The notes under the pieces are model-generated. The model did not search any database, was not told the origin of the DNA, and saw only the letters and a program-made list of their open reading frames with translations. Made by a program: the position numbers and the translations under genes. This document shows, in pieces, positions 23,846-42,331 of a DNA stretch of 63,726 bases (its first letter is position 1; every line of letters starts with the position of its first letter). This DNA comes from Candidatus Kaiserbacteria bacterium (GTDB taxonomy: Bacteria; Patescibacteriota; Minisyncoccia; Phycocordibacterales; UBA918), in the NCBI GenBank assembly GCA_020428905.1, contig JAGQLY010000002.1, positions 1-63,726 of the forward strand, written 5' to 3'.

Positions 23846-23852
23846 AGAACCT

Positions 23853-24563
23853 ATGACACAAAACACCTTAGTGAGAAGCGCTACACACACCCTCTGGTGT
23901 CTCTTCGTTGTGGGGGTCCTCCTATCCTTTGCAACCACCGCAGCAGCACAAGGATCGGGCGGATACGTACCCCTCGCAGGCATCCCCGGGGTGACCGACC
24001 AGCCGGATCTGGTTTCATATATAAACGCGCTCTATATGCTCACCATCAGTGTGGGTGGGCTCTATGGAGTTATTAAAATAGCAATCGCGGGGATTAAGTG
24101 GTCGGTGAGTGATGTGGTAACCGATAAATCAGATGCAAAAAAAGGCGTGTACGGGGCACTCCTCGGACTTGCAATCTTACTCTCTACGTATGTGGTACTT
24201 AACACTATCAACCCACAACTAACGAATTTGAATATTTTCGGTCGTGCGACAGAGATTCCACCACCCGCGCCGGTGGCAGGGGCCAATCTCCAACCTGGGC
24301 AGACATGCCTCAATCAGGCATGTACTGGTGTCACTAAGGACACCTCGAACTTTGACTTTGCCTCGGGACAACGCACAGAGTCCTTTAGTGCAGCGGACTT
24401 TGGTGCTGGTGGTACTGCACCAGCACGGACCGCCACATTTATAGAAAACTGCAAAAACTGGGATGGTTCTCGCGGCTCGATCAAAACCACAACAACCGGT
24501 GGTACCATAAGCTATACCTGTACATTCGAGGGATCCACCCCCAAAACCAAAACTGGTTCATGA
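23853..24563 (+). CDS. VirB2/TrbC-like T4SS pilin with a C-terminal 4-Cys extension
   Basis: Signal peptide ending AAAQG, then two hydrophobic helices separated by a short charged loop (LYMLTISVGGLYGVIKIAIAGI ... KKGVYGALLGLAILLSTYVVLNTI). About 100 extra residues follow, containing four Cys. Confidence 0.5.
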   Translation: MTQNTLVRSATHTLWCLFVVGVLLSFATTAAAQGSGGYVPLAGIPGVTDQPDLVSYINALYMLTISVGGLYGVIKIAIAGIKWSVSDVVTDKSDAKKGVYGALLGLAILLSTYVVLNTINPQLTNLNIFGRATEIPPPAPVAGANLQPGQTCLNQACTGVTKDTSNFDFASGQRTESFSAADFGAGGTAPARTATFIENCKNWDGSRGSIKTTTTGGTISYTCTFEGSTPKTKTGS

Positions 24564-25792
24564 AAAAAAAGATATTCATCAGCATTGCAATTGTTCTCCT
24601 CCTCGTCGCTGTCGCGTTGTGGGGATACCTTTTCTTCGTAAAGCCGCCGGCTGGGAACGGCGACCTCTCGGGGCTTCCTATCGGTGGTAGTTCGGGTGCG
24701 TCCTCGGAACAGGACGCCAATAGAGCCGGTGGGAATGAACAAAGCACCACAACTATTCTCCCCAAGCCGCTCCGCCAACTCACCACCCGCGCGGTTGCTG
24801 GAGCAACTTTTACCGAAAGTGGTGTCCGCTTCATGGAGCGGGGCACCGGACACATTTTCGATATTAACCTCCTTACTGGAGCTGAAACACAAGTGACTAA
24901 TACGACTCTCGCCGGTGTGGTGACCGCAGATTTTTCTCCGAGTACCAACCGAGTCCTCTTTGGTGTCCCGCAAGACGACACCGCCTCTTTCTCCGTTGGC
25001 ACCATTACTCGTGGAGACGACGGTGGAGGTACTGTGACCGGTTTTGGACTTCCTACAGGAGCACACGAGGTGGCCTTTACCCCGTCTGGGGAAGCAGTAT
25101 TTTATGTGCTTGATGGCGCAAACGGTGCGGTGGGATACCAGTACACCATAGCGAGCGAGGCAAGTGAGCAGCTCTTCTCGGTACCGATACGAGATATACG
25201 TGTTCTGTGGGGAAACGCTATCTACGTATATCCAGCACCAACTGCTGCACAACCGGGGTCTGTGTACCGAGCGCGAGGAGACACACTCGAATACGTGACC
25301 GGCAGTGCATACGGCCTTACTGCTACTGCATTTACTGGTGGGCTTGTGGTCTCATACACTGACAGTGCCTCACAGTGGGGTGTCGGTACATATATAAAAA
25401 TTGGTACAAGCACCCAACCACTTGGGATCCCACTTCTTGCTGACAAGTGTGCACAACAAGCTTTGGGAGATTCTGTGCTCTACTGTGCAGCAACACCCTC
25501 CCCCGAGAGGGGTACCTACCCGGACGACTGGTATAAAGGCCTCGTTTCCTTCGACGACGCCCTTTGGGAACTCGCACCCTCCGCGGGAAGTGCGCTCTTG
25601 TTGAGTAATTTTAAAGAAGAGAGTGGGCGACAAATCGATGCAACAAAACTAGTCACCGACAGAGCAGGAGAACGCATCTCCTTCATAAACAAAATCGATA
25701 CTACTTTGTGGATATTTGATACCACACTGGTAGTACAACCAACAACCGATACAGGGAACGCTGCAAGCTCGACAGAATCAGCAACAAACTAA
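24560..25792 (+). CDS. Hypothetical membrane-anchored extracytoplasmic protein; last gene of the T4SS-like operon
   Basis: The ATG overlaps the preceding stop. N-terminal TM helix (IFISIAIVLLLVAVALWGYLFF), followed by a Gly/Thr/Ser-rich, beta-like sequence. Confidence 0.6.
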   Translation: MKKKIFISIAIVLLLVAVALWGYLFFVKPPAGNGDLSGLPIGGSSGASSEQDANRAGGNEQSTTTILPKPLRQLTTRAVAGATFTESGVRFMERGTGHIFDINLLTGAETQVTNTTLAGVVTADFSPSTNRVLFGVPQDDTASFSVGTITRGDDGGGTVTGFGLPTGAHEVAFTPSGEAVFYVLDGANGAVGYQYTIASEASEQLFSVPIRDIRVLWGNAIYVYPAPTAAQPGSVYRARGDTLEYVTGSAYGLTATAFTGGLVVSYTDSASQWGVGTYIKIGTSTQPLGIPLLADKCAQQALGDSVLYCAATPSPERGTYPDDWYKGLVSFDDALWELAPSAGSALLLSNFKEESGRQIDATKLVTDRAGERISFINKIDTTLWIFDTTLVVQPTTDTGNAASSTESATN

Positions 25793-26538
25793 TTTCGTGT
25801 TGGGGTCTTAAGGCCTTTATGACGCACAAGGTATTCCTGTCCGATTGCCACAAGATTACTCACCGCAAAATAAAGTGCAATCGCTGCCGAAATACTATAC
25901 GCCACCATAAAGACAATCACCGGCATGACATAGCGCATCTGGAGGTTCATACTGCGGGCAAGGTCTTCTTTGAAGTTTTGCCCCGCATTTGGATCGCGCG
26001 GGGTGTGCTTGGGAAGCGTAAGGTTGGTGTGTATATACTGGGTAACTCCTGCAAGTAGTGCGAGTGGGATGCTGCGCGTAGTGATATCGAGGAGACCAAG
26101 AAAAAGGAGATTGATGGTCTCAGGAGAAGGGATGAACGAGTAGAGGAGGGCAACATTTACATCTGGGAGTGGTACGCCACCGCCACGATATACCGCAAGA
26201 TAGAGTGCTATCACAACGGGAATTTGTATAAAGAGAAGTAGGATGCTTGAAAAAGGATTCACCCCCGCATCTTTATACAAAGCAAGCATGTGTTGTGCCA
26301 TTTCCTCTCGTTTGTCTTTGTATTTTTCACGGATCTCTTTGAGCTTCGGTTCGATCATACGCATCGCAAGCTGAGTACGAGCCGCTTTAAATGAGAGGGG
26401 GAGTAGTACCAACTTCACCAACACCACCGTACACACAATCGCGAGTCCCACATCACCCCCGGGAAGTGCGTCAATAAAAAAAATAAGACTGTTGTAAATT
26501 GGATCAAAAAAAATGGTGTGCCAGAGTGAATTAAACAT
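25789..26538 (-). CDS. yidC: Membrane protein insertase YidC (short form)
   Basis: GLAIVCTVVLVKLVLLPLSFKAARTQLAMRMIEPKLKEIREKYKD...MLALYKDAGVNPF. Confidence 0.9.
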   Translation of the reverse strand: MFNSLWHTIFFDPIYNSLIFFIDALPGGDVGLAIVCTVVLVKLVLLPLSFKAARTQLAMRMIEPKLKEIREKYKDKREEMAQHMLALYKDAGVNPFSSILLLFIQIPVVIALYLAVYRGGGVPLPDVNVALLYSFIPSPETINLLFLGLLDITTRSIPLALLAGVTQYIHTNLTLPKHTPRDPNAGQNFKEDLARSMNLQMRYVMPVIVFMVAYSISAAIALYFAVSNLVAIGQEYLVRHKGLKTPTRN

Positions 26539-26550
26539 AATGGGATCATT

Positions 26551-26874
26551 TTACCGTGCCTTTGCGGCACTTCCAAGTAATTGTTGTACTTCGGATGCGA
26601 GTTCCAAAAAGGTGTGTGTCGCGCTCTGTGGTTTCGCTATAACGATATACACTCCACCTGTTGGTTGGAATGTTTGTATTAGGGAGTAGAGGCGTCTCCG
26701 CAGATGATTACGCATCACTGCCGATCGAGCAACTTTTTTTGATACCACAACCGCAACGCTGAGCCCAATCGCCTTTGTGTATACAAGTGTGAGTGAGGGT
26801 GAGTGAAGTCGCTTTCCTAAAGAAAAAAAGCGACTGAACTCTTTCGTACTCAATCGTTCTTTTTTCCGCACCAT
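26551..26874 (-). CDS. rnpA: RNase P protein component
   Basis: 107 aa, basic. VVVSKKVARSAVMRNHLRRRL. Lies between rpmH and yidC as in the canonical cluster. Confidence 0.85.
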   Translation of the reverse strand: MVRKKERLSTKEFSRFFSLGKRLHSPSLTLVYTKAIGLSVAVVVSKKVARSAVMRNHLRRRLYSLIQTFQPTGGVYIVIAKPQSATHTFLELASEVQQLLGSAAKAR

Positions 26875-26880
26875 AGTGTC

Positions 26881-27018
26881 TTATACACTCAACTTTGCAC
26901 GACCCTTTCGGCGACGAGCCTGTACCACACGAGCACCTGTCTTTGTTTTTGTGCGCGCAAGAAAACCGTGTGTGGTTGCTCGTTTCTTTTTCTTTGGTTG
27001 ATATGTTCGCTTTGGCAT
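26881..27018 (-). CDS. rpmH: 50S ribosomal protein L34
   Basis: [45 protein letters not shown]. The ORF track's 91-aa frame extends upstream of this Met. Confidence 0.95.
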
Positions 27019-27132
27019 GATTTCTAGATATTCTAAGCTACCTTGAGCACAACTGTACACTAAATACCCATATTGATCAAATATTTGTTCGTTTGGTTGT
27101 AGGGTGCTCTTGACGTTTTTGTATATACACCG

Positions 27133-27214
27133 TTTTCCACAGACTATACACAACACTCTTGTGTAATCCGCTTATTTTTTGCCGTGCTGTGTGTGTTGTT
27201 TACAGTTTTCCACA
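27133..27214. promoter_or_regulatory. DnaA-box-like 9-mers in the rpmH-dnaA intergenic region
   Basis: TTTTCCACA occurs at 27133-27141 and 27206-27214, and CTATACACA at 27144-27152. Each differs from the TTATCCACA/TTATACACA box by one position. Confidence 0.55.
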
Positions 27215-27257
27215 GGTCGGTATAATTCTTGCTATTGTGCGTAATGATCTTCATTCT

Positions 27258-28637
27258 ATGAATCCAACATCACATTCACCCGCGAGTATTGTTCGAACCG
27301 AGCAGGTTGATGTGAAGCAGATGTGGGATGATGCGCTGGTACACATAGAACTCTCTATCACGCCAGCGAATTTTAAAACATGGTTTCGAGATACACACAT
27401 TGTTTCGCTTGAGGGAGGGACAGTGACTCTTGGAGTGCCGAGTGTATTTGTCCGTGATTGGATAGCTGATAAGTTTCAAGCGCTCATACTTAAAACACTT
27501 CGTGAACTTACTCCATATGCACGCAGTATTGAATATGCTGTCGTGCAGCGTAGTGACCGTAGGCAAGGGTCCTCAAAGAAGCAAACAGTGAACGCCGCCC
27601 TTCCTCTTGAGGAGTACTATATCAACAAGAGTGACAACCTTAACCCCAAATACACTTTTGAGACATTTGTAGTGGGTTCCTTCAATGAACTCGCGCACGC
27701 AGCTGCAAAGACGGTTGTGGAGAAACCAGGGATTGCGTATAACCCCCTCTTTATTTACGGAAAGACCGGCCACGGAAAGACGCACCTCATACAAGCAGTG
27801 GGAAATCAACTCAAACGAGTGGGTAAAAAGGTTTTCTACGTTACCAGTGAGCGTTTTGCGGTTGACTATATGAACTCACTGCAGAGTGGTACCGCAAATA
27901 ATTTCAAAGATCGTTATCGTCAATACGATGTGTTGATTATGGATGATGTGCAATTTTTGGCGAATAAAGAAAAAACTCAGGAAGAACTTTTTCACCTCTT
28001 TAACGCGATGCATGATACAAACAAACAGATTGTGTTCTCGAGTGATGTACACCCTGCGCTTATGTTGAATATGGAGGAGCGTCTTCGTTCCCGCTTTGCA
28101 CAAGGAATGATTGTTGATATTCCCGCGCCAGACTCGGAGTCTCGGGGTGCTATTTTGAAGGCAAAGGCCGCGCAAAACACCATCACCCTTAGTGATGACG
28201 TTGTTAACCACCTATCAAGCACTATTGAGGGTAATGTGCGTGAACTTGAGGGGGCACTCAACACTATTTTGTGTCAATCACAACTTCTTGGTCGCACCTT
28301 AAGTCTTGATGAGGTGCGTGTACTTATTAAAAATAGTACACGACCACGTAAATCGCTTGCAGTTGTAGATGTAGTTGAAAAAATATCACAATACTTCGAT
28401 ATTGAACCAACCAGTATCTACGAAAAAACGCGACGAAAAGAGGTGGTACGGCCACGCCAACTTATTATGTATATCCTCCGTGAGGATTTTCAGGTGTCAT
28501 ACCCCGCCATTGGGCAGAAACTCGGTGGCCGTGACCACACCACCGTCATTCACTCATGTGAAAAGATAAAGCGTGAACTTATTGACGATCGTGACCTTGA
28601 GGAGGAGATTGCTCAGATACGCTCACTACTTAAGTAG
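27258..28637 (+). CDS. dnaA: Chromosomal replication initiator DnaA
   Basis: NPLFIYGKTGHGKTHL, LIMDDVQFL, and a C-terminal VRPRQLIMYILRE...YPAIGQKLGGRDHTTVIHSCEKI. Start taken at MNPTSH. Confidence 0.95.
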   Translation: MNPTSHSPASIVRTEQVDVKQMWDDALVHIELSITPANFKTWFRDTHIVSLEGGTVTLGVPSVFVRDWIADKFQALILKTLRELTPYARSIEYAVVQRSDRRQGSSKKQTVNAALPLEEYYINKSDNLNPKYTFETFVVGSFNELAHAAAKTVVEKPGIAYNPLFIYGKTGHGKTHLIQAVGNQLKRVGKKVFYVTSERFAVDYMNSLQSGTANNFKDRYRQYDVLIMDDVQFLANKEKTQEELFHLFNAMHDTNKQIVFSSDVHPALMLNMEERLRSRFAQGMIVDIPAPDSESRGAILKAKAAQNTITLSDDVVNHLSSTIEGNVRELEGALNTILCQSQLLGRTLSLDEVRVLIKNSTRPRKSLAVVDVVEKISQYFDIEPTSIYEKTRRKEVVRPRQLIMYILREDFQVSYPAIGQKLGGRDHTTVIHSCEKIKRELIDDRDLEEEIAQIRSLLK

Positions 28638-28722
28638 TGGGGATAGGGTGTGAGTAGTGGTGGTTATTGAGTGGGGTTTGTTCTTAAGAAGCTGTGTGAG
28701 TAGAATGTGTGTAGACATAAGA

Positions 28723-28847
28723 CTATACACACCTCTACATACACCAACAGTTATCACCACACTTAAGCATTATTGTTACACAGGTGATTGTGTATAAAGA
28801 AACATAAAAATATATTGGTTTTAAGCCATATAAAACGTTTATACACA
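28723..28847. promoter_or_regulatory. DnaA boxes plus AT-rich stretch in the dnaA-dnaN spacer (oriC candidate)
   Basis: CTATACACA at 28723-28731, TGTGTATAA (inverted box) at 28789-28797, and TTATACACA at 28839-28847. They flank the AT-rich run AAAGAAACATAAAAATATATTGGTTTTAAG. Confidence 0.55.
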
Positions 28848-28892
28848 CATACACAGGGCTATTAATAAAGGGGTTGGTTATAAAAAATTATC

Positions 28893-29987
28893 ATGATGCA
28901 TGTAACAGCAGACACACAGGGGCTTAGGAAGGTTCTTGAGATTGCTTCCCGAGTGAGCACAAAACACCTCACACTCCCAGTACTTCAGTGTGTTCTTCTT
29001 AAGGTGGTTGGTTCAACACTAACTATAAGTGCAACTAATCTTGAGATAGGTGTTGTAGGGTCACTTTCGGTAGAAGTTGGAGGTGATGGTGAAGTGGCTG
29101 TCCCCACACAAACACTTCTACAAACAATAAATCTTAATACACAAAAACACACCACACTATCACTTGAGGGAGAGGTGTTACATGTTGAAACAAAAACATC
29201 AAAAACAGCAATAAAAAGTGTCTCTACTGAGGAATTTCCACATATTCCACAAGTCACAGAAAACACCCAGTCAATAAATGGGGTGTTGTTTGCACAAGGT
29301 ATCAAGACCACTGTGTTTGCTGCATCTCAGTCGTCTATTAAACCTGAGTTGGGATGTGTGTATGTCTTTCAAAAAAAAGAGCATACACTCACCTTCACCA
29401 CAACAGACTCATTTCGTTTGATTGAAAAAACTGCTCCACAGCACGGATTTATACTCCAAGACTCTCTTCTTATTCCATATAAAAATGCTCTAGAGATTGC
29501 CCGAGTCGCTGAACTTGCTGAAGATGTGGTTATGTTTTCTACCAACGAAAACCAATGTGCACTCACGGTGGGAAATATATACATCACCTCACGACTCACC
29601 AACGGTTCGTTTCCGGATTATGAACAAATTATCCCTAAGGAATATGTGACACATAGTACAGTGCTTACCAGTGATTTCCTTCACGCTCTTAAAAAAACAA
29701 ATATCTTTCTAAATAAATTTATGCAACTTACTGTGGTGGTAGATACAGAATCACTCACACTCTCTGCACAGAGTGGTGAAGTGGGCACCACCACTGAGTC
29801 ACTGCATGCTGCAACTGAAGGAGATGCTATTACACTCAACTTCAATCAGCGGTATATAGCAGAGGTACTCCCACACATTACCGATGATAGTATCACCCTT
29901 CATTTTGCTGGTGTGGGGAGACCAATGGTGATTGAGAGTGTGCATGATAAATCTATGCGATATTTGGTAATGCCGATGAATAAGTAG
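28893..29987 (+). CDS. dnaN: DNA polymerase III beta sliding clamp
   Basis: 364 aa. LPVLQCVLLKVVGSTLTISATNLEIG ... FTTTDSFRL ... YLVMPM, directly after dnaA. Confidence 0.9.
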   Translation: MMHVTADTQGLRKVLEIASRVSTKHLTLPVLQCVLLKVVGSTLTISATNLEIGVVGSLSVEVGGDGEVAVPTQTLLQTINLNTQKHTTLSLEGEVLHVETKTSKTAIKSVSTEEFPHIPQVTENTQSINGVLFAQGIKTTVFAASQSSIKPELGCVYVFQKKEHTLTFTTTDSFRLIEKTAPQHGFILQDSLLIPYKNALEIARVAELAEDVVMFSTNENQCALTVGNIYITSRLTNGSFPDYEQIIPKEYVTHSTVLTSDFLHALKKTNIFLNKFMQLTVVVDTESLTLSAQSGEVGTTTESLHAATEGDAITLNFNQRYIAEVLPHITDDSITLHFAGVGRPMVIESVHDKSMRYLVMPMNK

Positions 29988-30019
29988 TTTTTGGTGTAAT
30001 TATATAGAGAGGTATAGTT

Positions 30020-32529: not shown

Positions 32530-32597
32530 ATGGGAATAGTAGCACTGTATTGTCTATATATGAATACAGAATGGGTGTGGTAGAGTTATCCATAATC

Positions 32598-33779
32598 ATG
32601 AAAGTTAATACTGACAGTCAAAAAATAGAAGAGCTGCTTACTCGTGGTGTTGTTGAGACTATTCATAGAGATTCTCTGCAAAGCAAACTCAAAAACGGCT
32701 CCCAACTTCGAGTGAAGCTCGGTATTGATCCGACAAGCCCCGATCTCCATCTTGGGCGGGCTATCCCACTCCTCAAATTACGTGATTTCCAAGAGTTGGG
32801 GCATCAGATAGTGCTCATTGTCGGGGACTTTACTGGCATTATTGGCGATACATCGGACAAAGAGAGTGAACGACCCATGCTCACTCACGAAGTAATCGAG
32901 CACAACATGGAGACATACAAAGAACAGGCGGGGAAACTACTCGATATGGAGAAGGTTGAGTTTCACCACAACTCCGAGTGGCTTGAGAAGCTTACTTACC
33001 GAGAGATTGGTGAACACGCCAACCTCTTTTCCGTTGCTGATTTTATTGCACGAGACAACATCAAACGACGTTTAGACGCCGGTACACGGGTGTCGCTCCG
33101 GGAAGTCTTATACCCTCTCATGCAAGGATATGACAGTGTGGCGGTGTGTGCAGATGTAGAGCTTGGGGGCACCGACCAAAGATTCAACCTTCTTGCTGGG
33201 CGCGCTCTACAACCCCACTATGATCAAGAGCCGCAAAATATTGTTATGACCACCCTCATCAACGGTACCGATGGACGAAAGATGAGCTCAAGTTGGGGTA
33301 ATACCATCACACTCACAATGTCGGCGGATGATATGTACGGCAAGATAATGAGTATGAACGACACCGAGATTGTACCCTACTTCACACTCTGTACGCGCGT
33401 ACCACTTTCTAAAATTGCTGATACGGAAGCCACACTTCTCGCTGACGGAAATCCGCGCGATATAAAGATGGGCCTTGCGCGTGAAATCGTGGGTATGTAT
33501 CACGGTGTTGAGGCCGCTCGGGCAGCCGAAGAAGTGTTTGTGGCGACGTTCCAGCAGGGTGGGATCCCTGAGGACCTTGTTGAGATTGTTGCACCATACA
33601 CCGAAACACTTGTTGCTGCCGGAGTTGTGACATCAAAGTCAGAACTCAGGCGTCTCTTTGATGCGGGGGGTATTCGTAATGCAGAAACCGGAGAAAAGTA
33701 TACTGAATTTCCAAAGTCTCTCGATGCGCCCCTTGTGCTTAAGGTGGGAAAGCGTCGGTTTGTGAAATTGCTCCCATAA
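32598..33779 (+). CDS. tyrS: Tyrosyl-tRNA synthetase
   Basis: GIDPTSPDLHLGRAIPL (HIGH), GTDGRKMSSSWGN (KMSKS-like), C-terminal S4-like tail. Start taken at MKVNTD. Confidence 0.85.
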   Translation: MKVNTDSQKIEELLTRGVVETIHRDSLQSKLKNGSQLRVKLGIDPTSPDLHLGRAIPLLKLRDFQELGHQIVLIVGDFTGIIGDTSDKESERPMLTHEVIEHNMETYKEQAGKLLDMEKVEFHHNSEWLEKLTYREIGEHANLFSVADFIARDNIKRRLDAGTRVSLREVLYPLMQGYDSVAVCADVELGGTDQRFNLLAGRALQPHYDQEPQNIVMTTLINGTDGRKMSSSWGNTITLTMSADDMYGKIMSMNDTEIVPYFTLCTRVPLSKIADTEATLLADGNPRDIKMGLAREIVGMYHGVEAARAAEEVFVATFQQGGIPEDLVEIVAPYTETLVAAGVVTSKSELRRLFDAGGIRNAETGEKYTEFPKSLDAPLVLKVGKRRFVKLLP

Positions 33780-33806
33780 AAAACGCGGCAAGGGCCGCGT
33801 TTTTTA
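33778..33806. terminator. Bidirectional terminator between tyrS and the ruv-operon tail
   Basis: AAAAAACGCGGC-AAGG-GCCGCGTTTTTT. Confidence 0.85.
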
Positions 33807-33828
33807 ACCTGGCAGTGCAACAACCACA

Positions 33829-34164
33829 CTATCCCCACAGAGTGACGAATCCGAAAAAGAGTACAAACTCAATAAAGAAAACCCATAGAGACAACTGGTT
33901 TGCTTGGTGTGCCTTTTTGGGGAGATGTTTTTTCCATCCGTAGTAGAATACTCCACCAGCAATAAGAGGATCGATCGCACAAAGGATAAACACAGCCCAC
34001 CACTCCGCTTTTTTGAGACCGGTATCCGATGTTGGTGTTTGTGTTGTGTTGTGACGGATCCGAATCATATAAGCAGCAGTAAGAATGGTAACAACAATTA
34101 GAAACAACTCCACCAAAGCGTCTACACTTTCCCAAAACAACGACAAATTTGTATCCACATACAT
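33829..34164 (-). CDS. Hypothetical small membrane protein
   Basis: 111 aa with three hydrophobic helices (VELFLIVVTILTAAYMI, WWAVFILCAIDPLIAGGVFYY, LWVFFIEFVLFFGFVTLW). Confidence 0.55.
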   Translation of the reverse strand: MYVDTNLSLFWESVDALVELFLIVVTILTAAYMIRIRHNTTQTPTSDTGLKKAEWWAVFILCAIDPLIAGGVFYYGWKKHLPKKAHQANQLSLWVFFIEFVLFFGFVTLWG

Positions 34165-34204
34165 TTTTTATAGTAGTACTGCGGTTAGTCTAGCACGGCC
34201 AAAA

Positions 34205-34456
34205 CTAGAACTCATCACGATCGTCAAAGGAGTCGTAGTCCATATCCTCTTCGTCTGCGTCATACTCATCGTCTTCGTCGAGGTCGGCATCAAGCGGGTC
34301 GTCGGTATGATCATCTCCGTGTGAGATGTTGTGTTCCGGTGTGTCGTCATCTTCCTCCGCATCTTCATCGAAACCATCATCCGTCAGGGCTTCATCGAGG
34401 TCGTTTTCTTCCTCGTCAGGGTCGTGTGTGAAATTGGTGTGTGCTGAAAAGAGCAT
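34205..34456 (-). CDS. Hyper-acidic 83-aa protein
   Basis: MLFSAHTNFTHDPDEEENDLDEALTDDGFDEDAEEDDDTPEHNISHGDDHTDDPLDADLDEDDEYDADEEDMDYDSFDDRDEF. By my count it has 41 Asp+Glu, one Arg and no Lys. Co-directional with, and downstream of, ruvC. Confidence 0.5.
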   Translation of the reverse strand: MLFSAHTNFTHDPDEEENDLDEALTDDGFDEDAEEDDDTPEHNISHGDDHTDDPLDADLDEDDEYDADEEDMDYDSFDDRDEF

Positions 34457-34557
34457 ACAGTACTAATTACGATTATATATGCACATGTTTCTATCAAAAG
34501 TTTTACCATCCTGCAACTGGGCGATTTCCACAGATGTCGCGGGGTGCAAGAAGGGAT

Positions 34558-35028
34558 CTAGCGAAAGTGAGCAAGGCAAGTGATGCCGACGGCGATGGCG
34601 TCGTATTCGTCATCATGGGCCGTATCTGGGGCGTTGGGGAGAAGTTTGTGCACCATACTAATCACTGCTGCCTTATCACTCTTTCCATAGCCAGTGACTG
34701 CCACCTTGACTTCTTGTGGACCAAATTCGCGCACGGCGCAGCTATGTTGTTTTCCCAAAAAGAGTATGACGCCGCGAGCTTGCGCTACACCAATTGCGGT
34801 TTTTTGATTCCTATTAAAAAATAACGTTTCCACCGCAAGTGCGTCGGGGGTGTGTTTTTTGAGTAATGCCACAAATGCTTCTCCGAGAAACAAAAGTCGA
34901 TCAATGAACGCTGCGCTCTTGGGTGGTTCAATACAACCAGAATACAACAAGACATCGACACCACCAGACCGTTCGAGCACAGCAACACCAAGACGGTCGT
35001 ACCCCGGGTCTACTGCGAGGACTTTCAT
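34558..35028 (-). CDS. ruvC: Holliday junction resolvase RuvC
   Basis: MKVLAVDPGYDRLGVAVLE ... AVETLFF ... DEYDAIAVGITC. Start taken at the internal Met. Confidence 0.9.
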   Translation of the reverse strand: MKVLAVDPGYDRLGVAVLERSGGVDVLLYSGCIEPPKSAAFIDRLLFLGEAFVALLKKHTPDALAVETLFFNRNQKTAIGVAQARGVILFLGKQHSCAVREFGPQEVKVAVTGYGKSDKAAVISMVHKLLPNAPDTAHDDEYDAIAVGITCLAHFR

Positions 35029-35055
35029 AACATCATCATACACAACAAGCACCGG

Positions 35056-35611: not shown

Positions 35612-36616
35612 TTAATTGGCGTGTAAGTGTGCGTGCGCGTGTGCGGTTGCGACCCGTCCGCGTGGGGTACGTTCGAGAAGTCCTTGGCGTATGAGATAGG
35701 GTTCGAGCACGCCCTCAATGGTGGACATTTCTTCTCCTGTTGCTGCTGCTATGGTGTTGAGTCCCACCGGACCACCACCAAATTTAGAGATGATGACATC
35801 GAGCACCGCACGATCGGGAGCGCCAAGTCCTAGAGTGTCAATGTCGAGAAGTGTAAAGGTGCGATGTACGATATCCGCGGTCAGTGCTGTTTGTTCGAGT
35901 TGGGCAAGGTCACGGCAACGCTTCAGGAGGTAGTTGGCGGTTCGCGGCGTCGCCCGACAGCGAGACGCAATCGTACGAAGTACGGCCGTGTCGGCACTCA
36001 TTGAGAGGAGTTGCGCCGAACGGGTGAGAATCTCTACGATTTCTTCGTCGGTGTAAAACTCGAGGCGGAAGGTTCCTCCAGAAAAACGAGAACGGAGTGG
36101 TGCAGAGAGAAGAGAGATACGTGTTGTTGCGGCAACGAGCGTGAAGGGGGGGAGCTCAAGTTGCACCGTCCGCGCAGACGGCCCCTTACCAATGATGATG
36201 TCGAGTACCCCGGATTCCATGGCGGGGTAGAGCACCTCCTCGATTGCCTTTGAGAGGCGATGGATTTCGTCGATAAATAGTACGTCCCCGGGGGATAGGT
36301 TTGTGAGGATTGCCGCAAGGTCACCGACGCGCTCAATCGCGGGACCGGATGTGGTGCGCATGTTGGTTCCAAGTGTCTTTGAGATGAGGTGTGCGAGGGT
36401 CGTCTTACCAAGTCCTGGTGGCCCGTAGAGGAGCACATGCTCTGCTGCGTGACCGCGCTCTTTGGCGGCGGTGAGCAAAATACGCAGATTTTCTTTCGTT
36501 TTTGCCTGCCCAACATACTCATCCCAATGTTCAGGACGCAGTGTCTGATCGAGGTTGCCCGCACCGTCTCGCTTAAATTGCGGGCTGTCGTTCTGTGTTG
36601 GTGTGGTGGTGCTCAT
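35612..36616 (-). CDS. ruvB: Holliday junction branch-migration helicase RuvB
   Basis: [51 protein letters not shown]. Start taken at MSTTTP. Confidence 0.9.
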
Positions 36617-36679
36617 AATGGCAGAATAGTATCTATTGTACACCAGAACAGCATCCTCGTACGCGGGAAGGAGTCGGGG

Positions 36680-36708
36680 TTGACAAAATAAAACAGGTAT
36701 GCTAAAAT
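36680..36708 (+). promoter_or_regulatory. Consensus-like sigma70 promoter divergent from ruvB
   Basis: TTGACA (36680-36685), 17-nt spacer, TAAAAT (36703-36708). No ORF of 60 aa or more lies downstream on this strand. Confidence 0.55.
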
Positions 36709-36773
36709 TGTACTCGAAATGCTCGTTTGCTCTCTCGTCCGGAAAGAGCGCGTTCCACTGCACCAATTCCTAA

Positions 36774-36921
36774 TATCCAGGCGATAACCCTCTAAGCAAC
36801 ATTGGTTGCCGTTGCGAGGGTGGTTCGGTACTCGCCATGAGCGTGACCACGGGACTATTTCTTAGTCGCGGAGGCCACTTTCATACCTGAAAGCTTTGCT
36901 TAGAGGGTTATCTACTGGATA
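36774..36921 (+). ncRNA. Candidate structured non-coding RNA of unknown class
   Basis: 36783-36799 is the exact reverse complement of 36896-36912 (17 bp), and 36774-36780 of 36915-36921 (7 bp). The enclosed 96 nt contain three local hairpins. Strand is assigned only from the upstream promoter. Confidence 0.35.
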
Positions 36922-37005
36922 CTTCTAAAGACCATTTTTGGAATATAGCACACCAGATGCGCATCGTCTCTTGACCTGTAGGCAGCAGCGTGTGCGGATG
37001 CGCCC

Positions 37006-37050
37006 AAAAACAAAAGCCGTCGGTTGCACCTGCAACCGACGGCTTTTGTT
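37006..37050. terminator. Bidirectional terminator at the pilB 3' end
   Basis: A-run, GCCGTCGGTTGC-ACCT-GCAACCGACGGC, then a T-run. Confidence 0.85.
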
Positions 37051-38761
37051 ATGACACAATATGGTCTTCGAATGCAGTATCGCTTGCTTCGGGTGTCGTG
37101 GTTTCCACGGCCTCTTTCTTACTGAGATCAACTACACGCTCGAGTTCGTCGAGTGAAGTGATACCGGCAAGCACCTTCATGATACCGTCTTGTTGCATAT
37201 TCGGAATGTTCTGCGGGGCAGCTGCTTCATTAATGTTGTGTTCACGGGGATCGGCAATGATTGCGGCTTCGACGGCCTCAGTAATAACAATCGCCTCGTA
37301 GATACCGGTACGCCCCTTATATCCGCTGTTGCCACACTGGTCGCATCCCTTCGCGTCGAAGATAGTATGCAGTGCAACTGGTTGGTCCATGATACGCGCA
37401 ATCAATTTTTGTTCTTCGGTAGTGGTCTCGCGCGAAACACGACAGTGCTCGCAGAGTCGGCGCACCAGGCGCTGCCCAAGCACCACGTTGAAGCCGCTTC
37501 CGATCATGCGTGGATCGATACCGAGGTTAATGAGGCGGGGAAAGGCACCGGCGGCGCTATTGGTGTGGAGTGTTGAGAATACGAGGTGTCCGGTGAGTGC
37601 TGCGTGCAGCGCGGTCTCAGCAACTTCGCGATCGCGAATCTCACCCACCATGATGATATCTGGGTCTTGGCGCACCACGGCACGGAGTCCCGAGGCAAAG
37701 GTATAGCCGTCGCTTACTTGTGTCTGCACAATGCCGGGCAGTTTGTATTCAACCGGGTCTTCAATGGTTACAATCTTTACTTCAGGACTGTGTACACTCT
37801 GCAAGAATGCGTAGAGCGCGGTGGTCTTTCCGCTTCCGGTCGGGCCGGTCGTGATAATGGCTCCATGCGGCCGCTTCAGTTCTTCTTGCATTACCTCGTC
37901 GAGTCGCGCATTGAGGCCGAGACGGTCAAGCTTGAAGGCTGACGCATCGGGATCGAGAAGTCGCATCACAATCGATTCACCAAACGATCCGGGAATAATC
38001 GACGAACGAACCTCAACTTTGCGGCTCCCGACGTCGAAGGTGAAACGGCCATCTTGCGCTTCGTCGTGTATGTTGAGTTTTAGACCCGAGAGCAACTTAA
38101 GGCGGGAGAGGATTTTTTGGTAGGGGTGCGGTTCAAAGTCCACAATATCCCAGAGCACACCATCAAGGCGGTACCGCACGCGTACCGCCGCAGACTCAGG
38201 TTCGATGTGTACGTCGGATGCCTTAAGTGCAAGTGCACCACCAAAGATAACCTCAAGGGCGCGTGAGGTGCTGTCCGCTTTGTTCTCACTACTAATGGCA
38301 CGAATAAGCTCGGGTACGTCAAGCGGTGCGTGGATTTTGTTTGCAAGCTCCGCAATGCGTTCGGTATCAACATCCAAAACACCATGAGCGCTCGCTGCCG
38401 TGTGTTTGATGTCCTTATAGCGTTCCCAGGCGTGTTCGAGGCTGCTTAGAGAGACGACGTACACAATGGGCTCGAGGGATTGTTTTTGAAATGATTCGAG
38501 AATCTCTTGTGTTGTCGGAGAAAGGGGATTGCGTACGGCGACAGAGACGGATTGGTTGCCATGTTTAAACACCACAAGCTCAGCACGACGTGCCGCTGCC
38601 TCAGTCACCAGCTGGAGCGCTTCGGGGTCGATGCTCACGTCTCCGAGGTCGGCATACTGGTAACCCTGTTGTGTAGCGGTGCGCTGGATAAGCGCCTCCT
38701 CCTCGCGGTGGTGGAGTTCGGCTACTTTTGCATCCTCACGAGTGCTATCAAACTGGGCCAT
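37049..38761 (-). CDS. pilB: Type IV pilus assembly ATPase PilB (GspE/T2SSE family)
   Basis: 570 aa. Walker A (TGPTGSGKTT), GEIRD, TGHLVFSTLHTN, and the CxxC...CxxC tetracysteine (CEHCR...CDQCGNSGYKGR). Confidence 0.9.
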   Translation of the reverse strand: MAQFDSTREDAKVAELHHREEEALIQRTATQQGYQYADLGDVSIDPEALQLVTEAAARRAELVVFKHGNQSVSVAVRNPLSPTTQEILESFQKQSLEPIVYVVSLSSLEHAWERYKDIKHTAASAHGVLDVDTERIAELANKIHAPLDVPELIRAISSENKADSTSRALEVIFGGALALKASDVHIEPESAAVRVRYRLDGVLWDIVDFEPHPYQKILSRLKLLSGLKLNIHDEAQDGRFTFDVGSRKVEVRSSIIPGSFGESIVMRLLDPDASAFKLDRLGLNARLDEVMQEELKRPHGAIITTGPTGSGKTTALYAFLQSVHSPEVKIVTIEDPVEYKLPGIVQTQVSDGYTFASGLRAVVRQDPDIIMVGEIRDREVAETALHAALTGHLVFSTLHTNSAAGAFPRLINLGIDPRMIGSGFNVVLGQRLVRRLCEHCRVSRETTTEEQKLIARIMDQPVALHTIFDAKGCDQCGNSGYKGRTGIYEAIVITEAVEAAIIADPREHNINEAAAPQNIPNMQQDGIMKVLAGITSLDELERVVDLSKKEAVETTTPEASDTAFEDHIVS

Positions 38762-38819: not shown

Positions 38820-38848
38820 TTGATTTTTTATATAAAATATGATATAAT
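38820..38848 (+). promoter_or_regulatory. Putative promoter of the GC-rich lipoprotein gene
   Basis: TTGATT (38820-38825), 17-nt spacer, TATAAT (38843-38848). An AAAGGAGGTG Shine-Dalgarno follows, ahead of the ATG at 38891. Confidence 0.5.
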
Positions 38849-38890
38849 TAAATATAGAGGCCCTTCCCCACCACCAAAGGAGGTGCGGCA

Positions 38891-39388
38891 ATGAACAGGC
38901 AGATTTTATTCCTCCTGGCGGCAGCGAGTCTACTGCCAGGGTGTGGCAGTATCGCCATGTACGGTGGCCACCATACGGTGACCACCTCGAGCGGCGGGTA
39001 CGGCCGCGCGGCACCAGCGTTGCTGCAGGCGGATTGCCCACTGCGGTACGACGCGTGCCGCGACAGCCATAATCGGGTACGGGACATGGCCGCCCCGTAC
39101 CCGAAGCGTATCGTGTTGACGCGCGATATGCTGCTCCGGGCTCCGGGACATCTCCGTACCGGCAACTGGAGTTGCTGGTACCCGGGGATCGAAAACGGCC
39201 GGGTCACCCTGGACCCGGTGCCGGTCTGTTATGACCGGACGGAGCGGTTTTCATCCCGCCCACCGGAGGCAATGGAGTGCTTTCTTGTGGTTTCGGGAAG
39301 AAACCGCACCCAAGGAGGTGGTGGTCTCGACATCCCGGGACCTATGGCGTATCAATGCGGCCAGTATGTGCCGCGCAATACGTGGTAG
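38891..39388 (+). CDS. Hypothetical lipoprotein, compositionally atypical (GC-rich)
   Basis: The lipobox is in MNRQILFLLAAASLLPGC. There is a strong Shine-Dalgarno, a dedicated promoter and a terminator. Two 60-nt samples inside the ORF that I counted gave 38 and 37 G+C. Confidence 0.6.
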   Translation: MNRQILFLLAAASLLPGCGSIAMYGGHHTVTTSSGGYGRAAPALLQADCPLRYDACRDSHNRVRDMAAPYPKRIVLTRDMLLRAPGHLRTGNWSCWYPGIENGRVTLDPVPVCYDRTERFSSRPPEAMECFLVVSGRNRTQGGGGLDIPGPMAYQCGQYVPRNTW

Positions 39389-39399
39389 GCCCCCCTCAC

Positions 39400-39434
39400 A
39401 GTCCCTAACGCATGGAATGCGTTGGGGACTTTTT
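39400..39434 (+). terminator. Rho-independent terminator after the lipoprotein gene
   Basis: AGTCCCTAACGCA-TGGAA-TGCGTTGGGGACT (13 bp with one G-U pair), followed by TTTT. Confidence 0.85.
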
Positions 39435-39498
39435 CATTTGTGTTCTAATACACCACGTGCGTTCGGTCGGTGGTAGAATGTCCGAAAGCAAATGCAAT

Positions 39499-39936
39499 AT
39501 GAAGACCACCACTGTTCGTACACCAGAAGAAATGGAGCCGATTGCCCGCGAGGTGCTTGAGCGCTTCGGGGCAGGTAGTGTTGCAGCGGTGATCGCGCTC
39601 TCAGGAGAGCTTGGTGTTGGCAAAACCATATTTACCAAAGCACTCGCACAAGTGCTTGGTGTTACCGAACACATCACCAGCCCAACATTTGTGGTCATGA
39701 AGCAGTACGCGACGACGCATCCGGTGTTTAAAAAACTCATACACATTGATGCGTACCGCGTCGAAGATCTTGAGGAGATGCGAGTCATCGATCTTCCGCG
39801 ACTGCTTGAAGAGGAGGGAAGTGTGCTTTGTATTGAGTGGCCGGAACGTATTGCCGCGATGATTCCCGAGCGCGCATGCAGGGTCACCATCGCATCTCTT
39901 GATGAACATACACGGACAGTAACTTATGGCGACTAA
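39499..39936 (+). CDS. tsaE: tRNA t6A37 threonylcarbamoyl-transfer ATPase TsaE
   Basis: VIALSGELGVGKTIFTKALAQVLG...ITSPTFVVMKQY...HIDAYRV. The start is uncertain. The ATG at 39478 is also possible, but it overlaps a TAGAAT -10-like hexamer. Confidence 0.8.
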   Translation: MKTTTVRTPEEMEPIAREVLERFGAGSVAAVIALSGELGVGKTIFTKALAQVLGVTEHITSPTFVVMKQYATTHPVFKKLIHIDAYRVEDLEEMRVIDLPRLLEEEGSVLCIEWPERIAAMIPERACRVTIASLDEHTRTVTYGD

Positions 39937-42331
39937 CACACCAACAAAGAAGAAAGCAGTGCCAACACGCACCCTCGTGTTGCTTGACGCGCATGCTATT
40001 TTGCACCGAGCATACCACGCACTTCCTGATTTCACCTCACCCAGCGGAGAGCCCACCGGTGCGCTCTACGGCGTGGTGGCGATGTTGTTGAAAATTCTTG
40101 AAGAACTGAAACCAGACTACCTTGCTGCCTGTTATGATCTTCCCGAGCCGACGTATCGTCACGAGGTCTATAAAGAATATAAGGCGGGCCGTGCCAAAAC
40201 CGAGGACGCACTTGTTGAACAGATCGGTCGTTCGCGGGATATTTTTACCGCATTTGGTATTCCTATCTTTGAACACCCAGGGTTTGAGGCAGACGATATT
40301 TTGGGTACGATCGTCGCAGAAACAAGAAAAGAAAAAGACCTTAAGGTCGTTATCGCGTCAGGTGACATGGACACACTCCAGTTGGTCGAGGGTACACGCG
40401 TGTCCGTATACACTCTTCGAAAGGGTATTAAGGACACAGTGCTGTATGACGAGAAGGCAGTTGAGAAACGGTTTGGGTTTGGACCAACACTGGTCCCCGA
40501 CTACAAAGGACTTCGCGGCGATCCGTCAGACAATATTCCTGGGGTGCGCGGCATCGGCGAGAAAACAGCCATTGAACTCATCACTGGTTTTGGTGATCTC
40601 GACGCCATCTATGCAAAACTCAAAAAGACACCGACCGCCTTTGAAAAGAAGGGTATTCGCACGCGGGTACTGACGCTACTCACTGAGCAAGAAGAGGACG
40701 CACAATTTTCAAAAATGCTTGCCACCATTCGCACCGACGCCCCGATACAGTTTAGTCTGCCGACACAAACCTGGCGCGAGAAGCTCTCGACAGAGACGGT
40801 GCTTACGCTTTTTGATGAGCTCGGGTTTCGCACACTTGCGGCACGGGTGCAGATGCTCTTTGGCGGCGGAGTAAGCGCACTGCCCGCGTCGGTGGATGAG
40901 CGTGCACTCAAGGAGGCAGTCATTGGTCTTTGGCTCCTTGAGTCAGACACCACAAATCCAACACTGGAAGACGTACTCTCCTATGGGCGGCAGGTGTGCA
41001 AAGCAACGACGTTTGAAGACGCGCGCGCCTGCATTGCCGAAGGTCTCAAGAAAGAAAAGCTCGAGGAACTCTTTCGTACCGTGGAGCTTCCGCTTATCGC
41101 AGTGCTTGAGGCAATGCAGGCGCGCGGGATTACCCTCAACACCGCGTACCTTAAGGACCTTTCACACACCATGCACGCTGAGCTCATGGCGCTCGAGAAG
41201 GACATTTACAAACTTGCGGGCACTGAATTCAATATCAACTCACCCAAACAACTTGGCGAGATTCTCTACGATACTCTCGGGCTCAAACCGAAAAACCAAA
41301 AGAAAACGGCAACCGGGCAGCGTTCAACGCGAGAGTCAGAGCTTGGGAAGTTGCGTGAAGAGCACACAATCATCCCCGCAGTGCTCCGTTATCGCGAACT
41401 TCAAAAGCTTGTCTCCACATACATCGACACGCTGCCGACGATGGTTGGGAAAGATGGTCGCCTCCACACCACCTTTCTTCAGGCAGGGACAACCACGGGG
41501 CGCATGGCGTCGAAAGACCCCAATATCCAAAACATTCCTATCCGTACCGAAGAGGGGCGTGCAATACGGCAGGCCTTTACTGCAACGAAAGGTATGCAGC
41601 TGGTGGCAATAGATTATTCGCAGGTCGAACTTCGTGTTGCGGCGTTTCTCTCGGGAGACCAAAAAATGATTGAGATTTTTAAGGCGGGCGAGGACGTTCA
41701 CCGCGGTGTTGCTTCGCGGGTATTTGGGGTGCCGCAGGATGGGGTAACTGCCGACATGCGCCGTCGCGCAAAGGTCATTAATTTCGGCATTCTCTATGGT
41801 ATGGGGGTCAATGCGCTTCGTGTCAATCTTGGGGAGGATACTACGCGCGGGGAGGCGCAGGAATTTCTTAACGCCTATTTCTCTACCTTTACACGCCTCG
41901 CTGAGTACCTTGAAGAAACTAAAGCACATGCGCGCCTGCATGGCTACACGAAGACCTATTTTGGACGCAAGCGGCATTTTCCCGGGAGCACCTCGAGTGT
42001 GCCGTTTATTCGAGCACAGGCGGAACGTATGGCCATCAATGCTCCGGTGCAGGGTACGGCTGCTGACATCACCCGCATTGCTATGGTGCGTGCGCACGAG
42101 TACCTCGCGACACAAAAAGACGCTGCCTACATGTTACTCCAAGTACACGACGAATTAGTATTTGAGGTTGAGAAAGAGAGACTTGCCGAAATTGTCCCAA
42201 AGCTCGTCTCAAGTATGGAGGACGCCTTGAGCCTTAAAGAAACAAGTGGCGTGCCACTCCGAGTTGAAGTGAAGGTGGGAGATGATTGGAATAATATGAA
42301 TGCATACAAGGTAATGAAAAAGAACGGATAG
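39926..42331 (+). CDS. polA: DNA polymerase I (5' nuclease + polymerase domains)
   Basis: LLDAHAILHRAYHAL, DNIPGVRGIGEKTA, DYSQVELRV, RRRAKVINFGILYGM, QVHDELVFE. At 801 aa it is shorter than E. coli Pol I. Confidence 0.9.
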   Translation: MATNTPTKKKAVPTRTLVLLDAHAILHRAYHALPDFTSPSGEPTGALYGVVAMLLKILEELKPDYLAACYDLPEPTYRHEVYKEYKAGRAKTEDALVEQIGRSRDIFTAFGIPIFEHPGFEADDILGTIVAETRKEKDLKVVIASGDMDTLQLVEGTRVSVYTLRKGIKDTVLYDEKAVEKRFGFGPTLVPDYKGLRGDPSDNIPGVRGIGEKTAIELITGFGDLDAIYAKLKKTPTAFEKKGIRTRVLTLLTEQEEDAQFSKMLATIRTDAPIQFSLPTQTWREKLSTETVLTLFDELGFRTLAARVQMLFGGGVSALPASVDERALKEAVIGLWLLESDTTNPTLEDVLSYGRQVCKATTFEDARACIAEGLKKEKLEELFRTVELPLIAVLEAMQARGITLNTAYLKDLSHTMHAELMALEKDIYKLAGTEFNINSPKQLGEILYDTLGLKPKNQKKTATGQRSTRESELGKLREEHTIIPAVLRYRELQKLVSTYIDTLPTMVGKDGRLHTTFLQAGTTTGRMASKDPNIQNIPIRTEEGRAIRQAFTATKGMQLVAIDYSQVELRVAAFLSGDQKMIEIFKAGEDVHRGVASRVFGVPQDGVTADMRRRAKVINFGILYGMGVNALRVNLGEDTTRGEAQEFLNAYFSTFTRLAEYLEETKAHARLHGYTKTYFGRKRHFPGSTSSVPFIRAQAERMAINAPVQGTAADITRIAMVRAHEYLATQKDAAYMLLQVHDELVFEVEKERLAEIVPKLVSSMEDALSLKETSGVPLRVEVKVGDDWNNMNAYKVMKKNG

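Follow-up and report, generated by a model that had tools for sequence, protein, structure and literature searches.

What does the 432-nt spacer (36617-37048) between ruvB and pilB encode, and what is transcribed from the promoter that points away from ruvB within it? To answer this, we examined the spacer in the window, by which we mean the whole stretch of DNA analysed (63,726 nucleotides, or 63.7 kb), together with related loci from other genomes and metagenome contigs. A first-pass annotation of the window had proposed a structured non-coding RNA at this position, possibly a novel one, and had named 6S-like and Y-RNA-like RNAs as candidates. The data presented below demonstrate that the region ~36715-37050 on the plus strand is a stand-alone structured non-coding RNA gene, located head-to-head with ruvB in CPR bacteria of the Paceibacteria type. 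The gene is present once in the window, and its position is the same in all Paceibacteria-type ruvB loci that were fetched. The proposal of a structured RNA is thus borne out by covariation, a conserved promoter, strand-specific G·U pairs, single copy number, the lack of an Rfam family and a transcript-sized contig from a relative.

Layout of the spacer and its transcription signals

Both genes that flank the spacer are encoded on the minus strand. The features of the locus are listed below, P1, P2 and P3 being the three helices of the folded core; subfamily A denotes the relatives that resemble the window.

36616 to 35612, minus strand: ruvB, the divergent neighbour (assigned by Pfam), followed by yebC and ruvC
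36635-36640, minus strand: TACAAT, the likely proximal -10 element of ruvB, 18 nt before the ruvB ATG (36616), as read from the sequence
36680-36708, plus strand: promoter of the RNA gene, with -35 TTGACA (36680-36685), a 17-nt spacer and the extended -10 TGcTAAAAT (36700-36708)
36729-36749, plus strand: 5' leader hairpin GCUCUCUCGUCCGGAAAGAGC (from the MFE fold), variable in sequence but recurring as a hairpin in the leaders of subfamily A relatives; its role is putative
36774-36799, plus strand: 5' strand of P1, with the outer 7 bp (36774-36780), a 2x2 internal loop and the inner 17 bp (36783-36799)
~36803-36877, plus strand: P2, a long irregular arm that contains a GCGAGG / CUUAG(U)C segment and a bulged A and is capped by a variable hairpin
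36878-36893, plus strand: P3, the short hairpin CUUUCA-UACC-UGAAAG, with 5 pairs that are 96.6% paired and mostly invariant
36896-36921, plus strand: 3' strand of P1, UUGCUUAGAGGGUUAUC..CUGGAUA
36923-36943, plus strand: small hairpin of the 3' tail (from the MFE fold), window-specific and not conserved in sequence
36942-36952, minus strand: conserved AATATAGCACA; on the ruvB strand its reverse complement, TGTGCTATATT, resembles an extended -10
36958-37004, plus strand: hairpin with CUUGACC (36970-36976) near its tip, from the 3'-flank alignment and the fold
37009-37050, both strands: bidirectional intrinsic terminator of the RNA (plus) and pilB (minus), a perfect 20-bp hairpin
38761 to 37049, minus strand: gene for a PilB-type T2SSE ATPase, the convergent neighbour (assigned by Pfam)

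The promoter pointing away from ruvB, as drawn in the first-pass annotation, was confirmed. It matches the consensus at 11 of 12 positions and is the sole promoter-like site in 36300-37400; its -10 hexamer TAAAAT (36703-36708) is preceded by TG at 36700-36701, making it an extended -10. Transcription would accordingly be expected to start at about 36714-36717. In the window the leader between promoter and P1 is 58 nt long and contains the hairpin listed above.

The statement that the plus strand lacks an ORF of at least 60 aa also proved correct, the longest ORF on this strand of the spacer being 38 aa. The minus strand of the spacer contains two frames only, neither of them conserved: one extends the ruvB frame upstream, and the other, of 68 aa, overlaps the pilB end. 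A small protein was considered and rejected, as relatives do not conserve the ORFs of 22-38 aa and their leaders share no ORF. The locus thereby shows what is generally found in intrinsically terminated sRNA genes, namely a promoter of its own, no conserved ORF and a terminator.

At the downstream end, the proposed bidirectional terminator was recovered as a perfect 20-bp inverted repeat (37009-37028 / 37031-37050), and since an A-run lies ahead of it and a T-run behind it, the hairpin can terminate transcription in both directions. A simple terminator scanner made no call for 37009-37050. In most subfamily A relatives, the 3'-flank alignment shows the CUUGACC hairpin followed by a U-run, which constitutes the terminator of the RNA. 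The CUUGACC in the loop of this hairpin reads in the same sense as ruvB codons that specify Leu-Asp-Gln.

The 3' flank contains a further conserved motif, AnnnTAnCA, located 33-54 nt past P1 in 22 of 30 subfamily A loci among the matches listed. In its fuller subfamily A form it reads CGACUAUAGCAYA, and its complement resembles an extended -10 on the ruvB strand. Judged by its sequence, the TGTGCTATATT element is possibly an antisense or distal promoter of ruvB, or else a motif of the RNA. The combination GGTCAAG...TGCTATAGT was rejected as a full -35/-10 promoter, given that the spacing is ~23 nt and only the extended -10 part fits. Both CGACUAUAGCAYA and CUUGACC are kept across subfamily A (for instance in loci L001, L084 and L130). 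We also observed a 25-nt direct repeat (36634-36658 / 36944-36968, 76% identical) that flanks the RNA promoter and the core, each copy carrying a -10-like element on the ruvB strand. As an insertion mark or a shared operator the repeat was discarded: it is not general, the identity within loci (0.27) being close to that across loci (0.26) in 20 relatives, and it is probably specific to the window.

Fold, conservation and expression of the RNA

The predicted fold of the transcript has a free energy of -140.5 kcal/mol (z = -7.4 relative to shuffled sequences), and the core alone reaches -69.8 kcal/mol (z = -6.7). The closing helix of 36774-36921 was found just as the first-pass annotation had described it: the arms 36774-36799 and 36896-36921 form 24 bp, as 7 and 17 perfect pairs split by a 2x2 loop, and enclose 96 nt. 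The near-invariant sequence AUAAnnCUCUAAGCAA sits in the 5' strand of P1, and the inner part of the helix, AUAAnnCUCUAAGCAA / UUGCUUAGAGnnUUAU, is almost invariant and kept in both subfamilies described below. With regard to the three interior hairpins that had been predicted, the one at 36878-36893 is supported by comparison and corresponds to P3 (consensus form ACUUUC...GAAAG), while those at 36814-36835 and 36853-36867 did not hold, since this region forms a single arm, P2. The arm contains an invariant GCGAGG / CCUUAGC segment that includes a bulged A, followed by freely covarying helices and a variable tip.

A consensus structure was derived with RNAalifold from a MAFFT alignment of 29 subfamily A sequences. 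It comprises 53 pairs, and 27 of these show compensatory changes among the 29 close relatives, a number of pairs changed on both sides that was reached by none of 500 shuffles. Compensatory changes affect 9 of the 23 consensus pairs of P1, and in P2 18 of 25 pairs are changed on both sides. Moreover, 94.9% of the cells are paired, compared with 85.8% in shuffles and 41-49% when the partners are slid. The alignment contains 194 G·U versus 19 A·C cells, and the proportion of paired cells on the plus strand (94.9%) exceeds that on the other strand (83.5%); this imbalance places the structure on the plus strand of the window and not on the ruvB strand.

In the Kaiserbacteria-type variant (subfamily A), the consensus fold is a closed three-way junction of P1, the long P2 and the short P3, with joining strands of ~5, 2 and 2-4 nt in the 29 sequences. 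Helix P2a is supported by covariation; for example, the pair 43:111 is A-U in 11 sequences and G-C in 11. Two other candidate motifs were set aside. A tandem U·G/G·U in P2 is not an invariant recognition motif, as Watson-Crick pairs replace it in the window, which makes it simply part of the helix, and the hammerhead core motif CUGAUGA is present in L002, a Kaiserbacteria MAG, and is not conserved.

DNA runs that contain the window stretch come from activated sludge and wastewater. By its RuvB protein, the organism belongs to the CPR/Patescibacteria; the best matches are 79% identical and were found in a lake MAG (L001) and in L002; both have the same element upstream of ruvB and the same promoter, with a C-G to U-A change in P1. 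When metagenome contigs were scanned for a pattern of two 10-mers from P1, at least 120 contigs matched. Among the 120 matches listed, ~95 contigs are true relatives with ruvB and/or pilB adjoining and one copy each, and ~28 are unrelated hairpins that share the 10-mers and have neither ruvB nor pilB nearby. The matches listed comprise two homologous subfamilies, A (window-like, 30 distinct sequences) and B (39). For the 69 typed loci among them, ruvB is the divergent neighbour in all 69, the pilB gene is the convergent neighbour in 56, and TTGACA-N17-TGCTAnnnT is kept on the strand opposite ruvB in 68.

A covariance model built on 29 subfamily A relatives matched the window at a single site, with a score of 122.8 bits, and located one site upstream of ruvB in 17 of 17 CPR ruvB loci (L001-L017, labelled Kaiser-, Nomura-, Zambryski- and Ryanbacteria, Minisyncoccia and others), the better-scoring strand being the one opposite ruvB in all except L006. 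The model did not match the ruvB loci of Buchananbacteria or Sungbacteria, nor any of 61 non-CPR loci save for a weak match at chance level in L045 (E = 0.07). All family members in the set L081-L180 were found by the model with one site per contig, and the same number of sites per contig holds across ~110 loci.

Subfamily B retains P1, the base of P2 and P3, and adds a tiny hairpin that turns the centre into a four-way junction. This extra arm consists of 3 bp (columns 35-37/47-49) and is absent from the window's subfamily. In subfamily B the 3' strand of P1 is directly followed by a U-run, so that P1 itself is the terminator there. The leader varies from 20 to 160 nt across members, and the tail is 90-190 nt in subfamily A and absent in subfamily B.

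Eight soil or metagenome contigs (L086, L097, L103, L121, L125, L127, L163 and L166) contain elements of ~120-140 bp that end in perfect terminal inverted repeats of 23 bp (GTCCTCTGCCAACTCTAAGCAAT...) and share the searched 10-mer, with no ruvB or pilB nearby. These GTCCTCTGCCAACTCTAAGCAAT elements may represent a separate MITE-like or hairpin family.

As to expression, no RNA runs containing the window's copy or that of a groundwater relative were found, and a peat metatranscriptome held nothing like the window's own copy. The same metatranscriptome did yield a 152-nt contig lying wholly on positions 2739-2890 of L014, that is, on the RNA core, with 97% identity. L014 is a locus from a peat MAG whose RuvB is 66% identical to that of the window, and the depth of the contig is low (3.9). 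The rest of the 6.9-kb L014 locus was uncovered, save for pieces of 30-40 nt from foreign conserved genes. This single contig shows that a family member exists as a core-sized RNA, far more abundant than the neighbouring mRNAs. Moreover, in the tip of P2 a C-G pair is replaced by G-C in the contig, a compensatory double change. In the predicted fold the two ends of the contig are opposed in P1, at the bulge that separates the inner from the outer helix, where the 5' end pairs with the base located two positions ahead of the 3' end; this geometry equals a 2-nt 3' overhang of the kind that RNase III leaves, although at such a low depth it could be due to chance.

Known RNAs, the neighbouring ruvB gene and rival explanations

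A scan of the whole window with Rfam 15 at gathering thresholds returned 4 tRNAs only. Rfam cmscan of 36600-37100 at E <= 10 produced nothing but chance matches on the terminator hairpin, and no family was found in 20 relatives at E <= 1. ARAGORN likewise reported no tRNA or tmRNA at the locus. Hence, the absence of an SRP RNA, RNase P RNA or tmRNA identity, which the first-pass annotation had based on missing signature motifs, agrees with both the Rfam models and ARAGORN, neither of which gave a match for these RNAs or for a tRNA. The suggestion of a Y-RNA-like molecule found no support, as the Y_RNA/YrlA models matched neither the window nor the 20 relatives. A Ro (Rsr) gene was not seen among the conserved neighbours TyrRS, RuvC, YebC, RuvB, PilB, TsaE-like and PolA-like, few of which were scanned with Pfam. 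A search of full-text literature and preprints found no description of such an RNA.

The RNA resembles the orphan RNAs (raiA motif RNA, OLE, HEARO and ROOL/GOLLD) in being defined by covariation, restricted to a lineage and without an assigned biochemical role. None of these Rfam models matches it, however, and it differs from them in being confined to CPR/Paceibacteria and in having a fixed genomic address; it is also smaller than OLE, ROOL and GOLLD. Another resemblance is to the stalks processed by RNase III in rRNA and other stable-RNA precursors, where sequences flanking the core form a helix of at least 22 bp after a leader of variable length; the relative's contig, with ends inside P1 and a 2-nt 3' overhang, fits this picture. 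In contrast to such stalks, the RNA keeps most of the helix in its apparent mature form, the sequence of the helix is invariant, and the cleavage is putative.

The arrangement of the promoters relative to ruvB differs between the subfamilies. In the window, TACAAT at 36640 to 36635 gives ruvB a very short leader and stands back-to-back with the RNA promoter, and most subfamily A loci have an equivalent TGnTAnnnT 6-18 nt ahead of the ruvB ATG. The two transcripts therefore do not overlap in subfamily A, and because the promoters are non-overlapping in the window's variant, the function of the RNA needs no antisense overlap. In subfamily B (e.g. L007, L008, L014 and L091), the ruvB ATG is embedded in the -35 of the RNA promoter (TTGACAT / ATGTCAA), and a conserved TGCTATAAT is found on the ruvB strand between the RNA start and P1. 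By its sequence, this TGCTATAAT inside the RNA leader is likely the ruvB promoter of subfamily B; in that position it would make the two promoters face each other, with overlapping 5' ends.

The wider neighbourhood forms a conserved block of TyrRS (plus), ruvC-yebC-ruvB (minus), the RNA (plus), pilB (minus), a TsaE-like gene (plus) and a PolA 5'-3' exonuclease-like gene (plus), its outer parts lying at 32550-35052 and 39400-41000 in the window. No ruvA was seen in the block around the RNA gene. The replication origin region lies at 24000-30000, with yidC (25789-26538, minus), dnaA (27159-28637, plus) and dnaN (28893-29987, plus); the cumulative GC skew has its minimum at ~24-26 kb, and the stretch 26-32 kb has a lowered GC content of 0.43-0.44. 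The RNA gene is situated ~10 kb to the right of the origin on the leading strand, with ruvB and pilB on the lagging strand. The stretches 22850-25792 and 38848-39890 contain several ORFs of 119-410 aa with no Pfam match at E <= 0.001.

Perfect inverted repeats upstream of ruvB, a reverse strand that also folds well and the 25-nt direct repeat around the unit in the window might point to an element acting at the DNA level, either a MITE-like insertion, an alternative that the first-pass annotation had itself raised, or a protein-binding palindrome, or to a 5' leader of ruvB on the minus strand. This explanation is close to refuted. There is one copy per window or contig; within the 63.7 kb, neither the 17-mer arm of P1 (3 mismatches allowed) nor the 10-mers are found outside this locus, 0.1 matches to the 17-mer being expected by chance. 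The unit keeps its orthologous position between pilB and ruvB across a class-level clade, the conserved promoter is on the strand opposite ruvB, and the direct repeat is not general among relatives. For a leader, moreover, the G·U pairs become A·C mismatches on the ruvB strand, with the drop in pairing given above, and in subfamily A a -10 element belonging to ruvB itself is found 6-18 nt ahead of the ATG. The main rival is that the locus is a local regulator of ruvB-yebC-ruvC, its very strong promoter being back-to-back with that of ruvB (face-to-face in other lineages). Interference would then come about by occlusion, collision or supercoiling, overlapping 5' ends would pair as antisense RNAs, and the folded core would mainly stabilise or terminate the transcript. 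This would explain the unbroken linkage of the RNA to ruvB, which holds for all loci, including those in which pilB is no longer adjacent, and it is consistent with the ruvB ATG overlapping the RNA -35 in subfamily B, where TGCTATAAT would make the 5' ends overlap, and with the extended -10-like element on the ruvB strand beyond P1 in subfamily A. It does not explain the constraints on the fold: neither interference nor antisense pairing needs an invariant helix, 27 covarying pairs or conserved internal loops. The core is equally conserved in the window's subfamily, where ruvB has its own proximal promoter and a short, non-overlapping leader, and the geometry of the overlap differs between subfamilies. 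All in all, we consider local regulation rather unlikely.

Two further explanations assign a specific partner to the RNA. Like 6S RNA (ssrS; RF00013 and lineage-specific families) and Ms1, it is stand-alone, promoter-driven, highly structured and ~150-200 nt in size, its 5' and 3' ends lie in a long closing helix, it has a second long arm and a small hairpin 3' of the centre, and it is presumably abundant. A functional analogue of 6S/Ms1 would be an abundant RNA that binds RNA polymerase holoenzyme, with the 5' strand of P1 by the junction as template for product RNA. The core of ~150-170 nt with its strong own promoter, the long helices around a central junction and the small hairpin on the 3' side are compatible with this, and templating could account for the invariance of the P1 strand next to the junction. 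The analogy nevertheless has only a slim chance of being right, as no 6S-clan model matched (E <= 10 for 36600-37100, E <= 1 for the 20 relatives) and the covariation-supported P2a closes the three-way junction (four-way in other lineages) at the place where a large open bubble should be. P1 is a perfect, sequence-invariant helix without the regular bulges of 6S stems, the gene is locked to ruvB and not to ygfA, and polymerase binding is hypothetical. The 6S-like label was consequently dropped, and neither a 6S-like form nor the four-way form of other lineages describes the window's variant. The second explanation takes the RNA as a branched nucleic-acid mimic of, or cofactor for, the adjacent motor proteins: it might look like a Holliday junction and titrate or load RuvB or RuvC, or scaffold a hexameric ATPase as in phage phi29. 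The phi29 pRNA is a three-way-junction RNA of ~120-170 nt whose 5'/3' duplex docks a hexameric ATPase. Here too a three-way-junction RNA gene is flanked by two genes for hexameric ATPases, ruvB and pilB. The strict adjacency to ruvB-yebC-ruvC and usually pilB, the architecture of a junction plus a long duplex, and the conserved block without ruvA would agree with such a role. Unlike pRNA, however, the RNA has no phage context and no sign of oligomerising loops, and there is no similarity in sequence or model. Furthermore, the 29 sequences of the window's subfamily form a three-way junction, so a four-way junction is not family-wide; RNA helices are A-form while the substrate of RuvA, RuvB and RuvC is B-form DNA; and a ruvA gene may be present at another place in the genome. 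We therefore regard a motor-protein cofactor as highly improbable.

Proposed role of the RNA and its significance

It is very likely that the locus is a real RNA gene of a new, uncatalogued family. That its product is a trans-acting, protein-bound and processed RNA is a more tentative proposal, to which we give slightly less than even odds; blending the two parts results in an overall probability of roughly 0.6 for this main reading. In this reading, the strong sigma-70 promoter starts the transcript, the core 36774-36921 folds into the 24-bp near-invariant P1, the long P2 and the short P3, and the transcript ends at the hairpins in 36958-37050. Cleavage inside P1, possibly by RNase III, may subsequently remove the variable leader and tail. 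The variation of the leader (20-160 nt), together with that of the tail, suggests that the functional unit is the core closed by P1, possibly released by cleavage inside the helix.

From the strong conserved promoter, the invariant sequence within helices and at internal loops, and the fact that no overlap with ruvB is needed in subfamily A, we infer that the RNA acts in trans as a stable and abundant molecule. It is probably bound by a protein, and if this protein recognises the duplex CUCUAAGCAA/UUGCUUAGAG, which is invariant, together with the GCGAGG/CCUUAGC segment, the RNA would be a subunit of a ribonucleoprotein (RNP) or a decoy. It should be underlined that two points speak against a simple form of this proposal: a purely trans-acting RNA would not require absolute linkage to ruvB, and an invariant sequence within a perfect helix is unusual for recognition by protein. 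A different constraint, for instance an alternative pairing or a role as template, could lie behind the invariance of P1. The most specific version, in which the RNA is the subunit or decoy of a new Paceibacteria RNP, with the duplex and GCGAGG/CCUUAGC read by a protein, RNase III trimming in P1 and a function tied to the recombination module (e.g. titration of RuvB/RuvC or their loading on branched nucleic acids), is quite unlikely to be correct in all its parts.

A large part of bacterial diversity belongs to the CPR bacteria, or Patescibacteria, whose genomes are tiny and of which hardly any have been cultivated. An RNA that is strongly expressed, structurally constrained and found at one address across a whole CPR class, and that matches none of the 4227 Rfam families, likely does something basic. 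If the RNP interpretation is true, the RNA would represent a housekeeping RNA of a new class, in organisms whose genomes are minimal. The rich covariation and the short, well-defined boundaries make the family directly testable, and it provides an added marker gene for the annotation of CPR genomes. A new ribonucleoprotein, or a new control of recombination and repair genes, could come to light once the partner of the RNA is identified.
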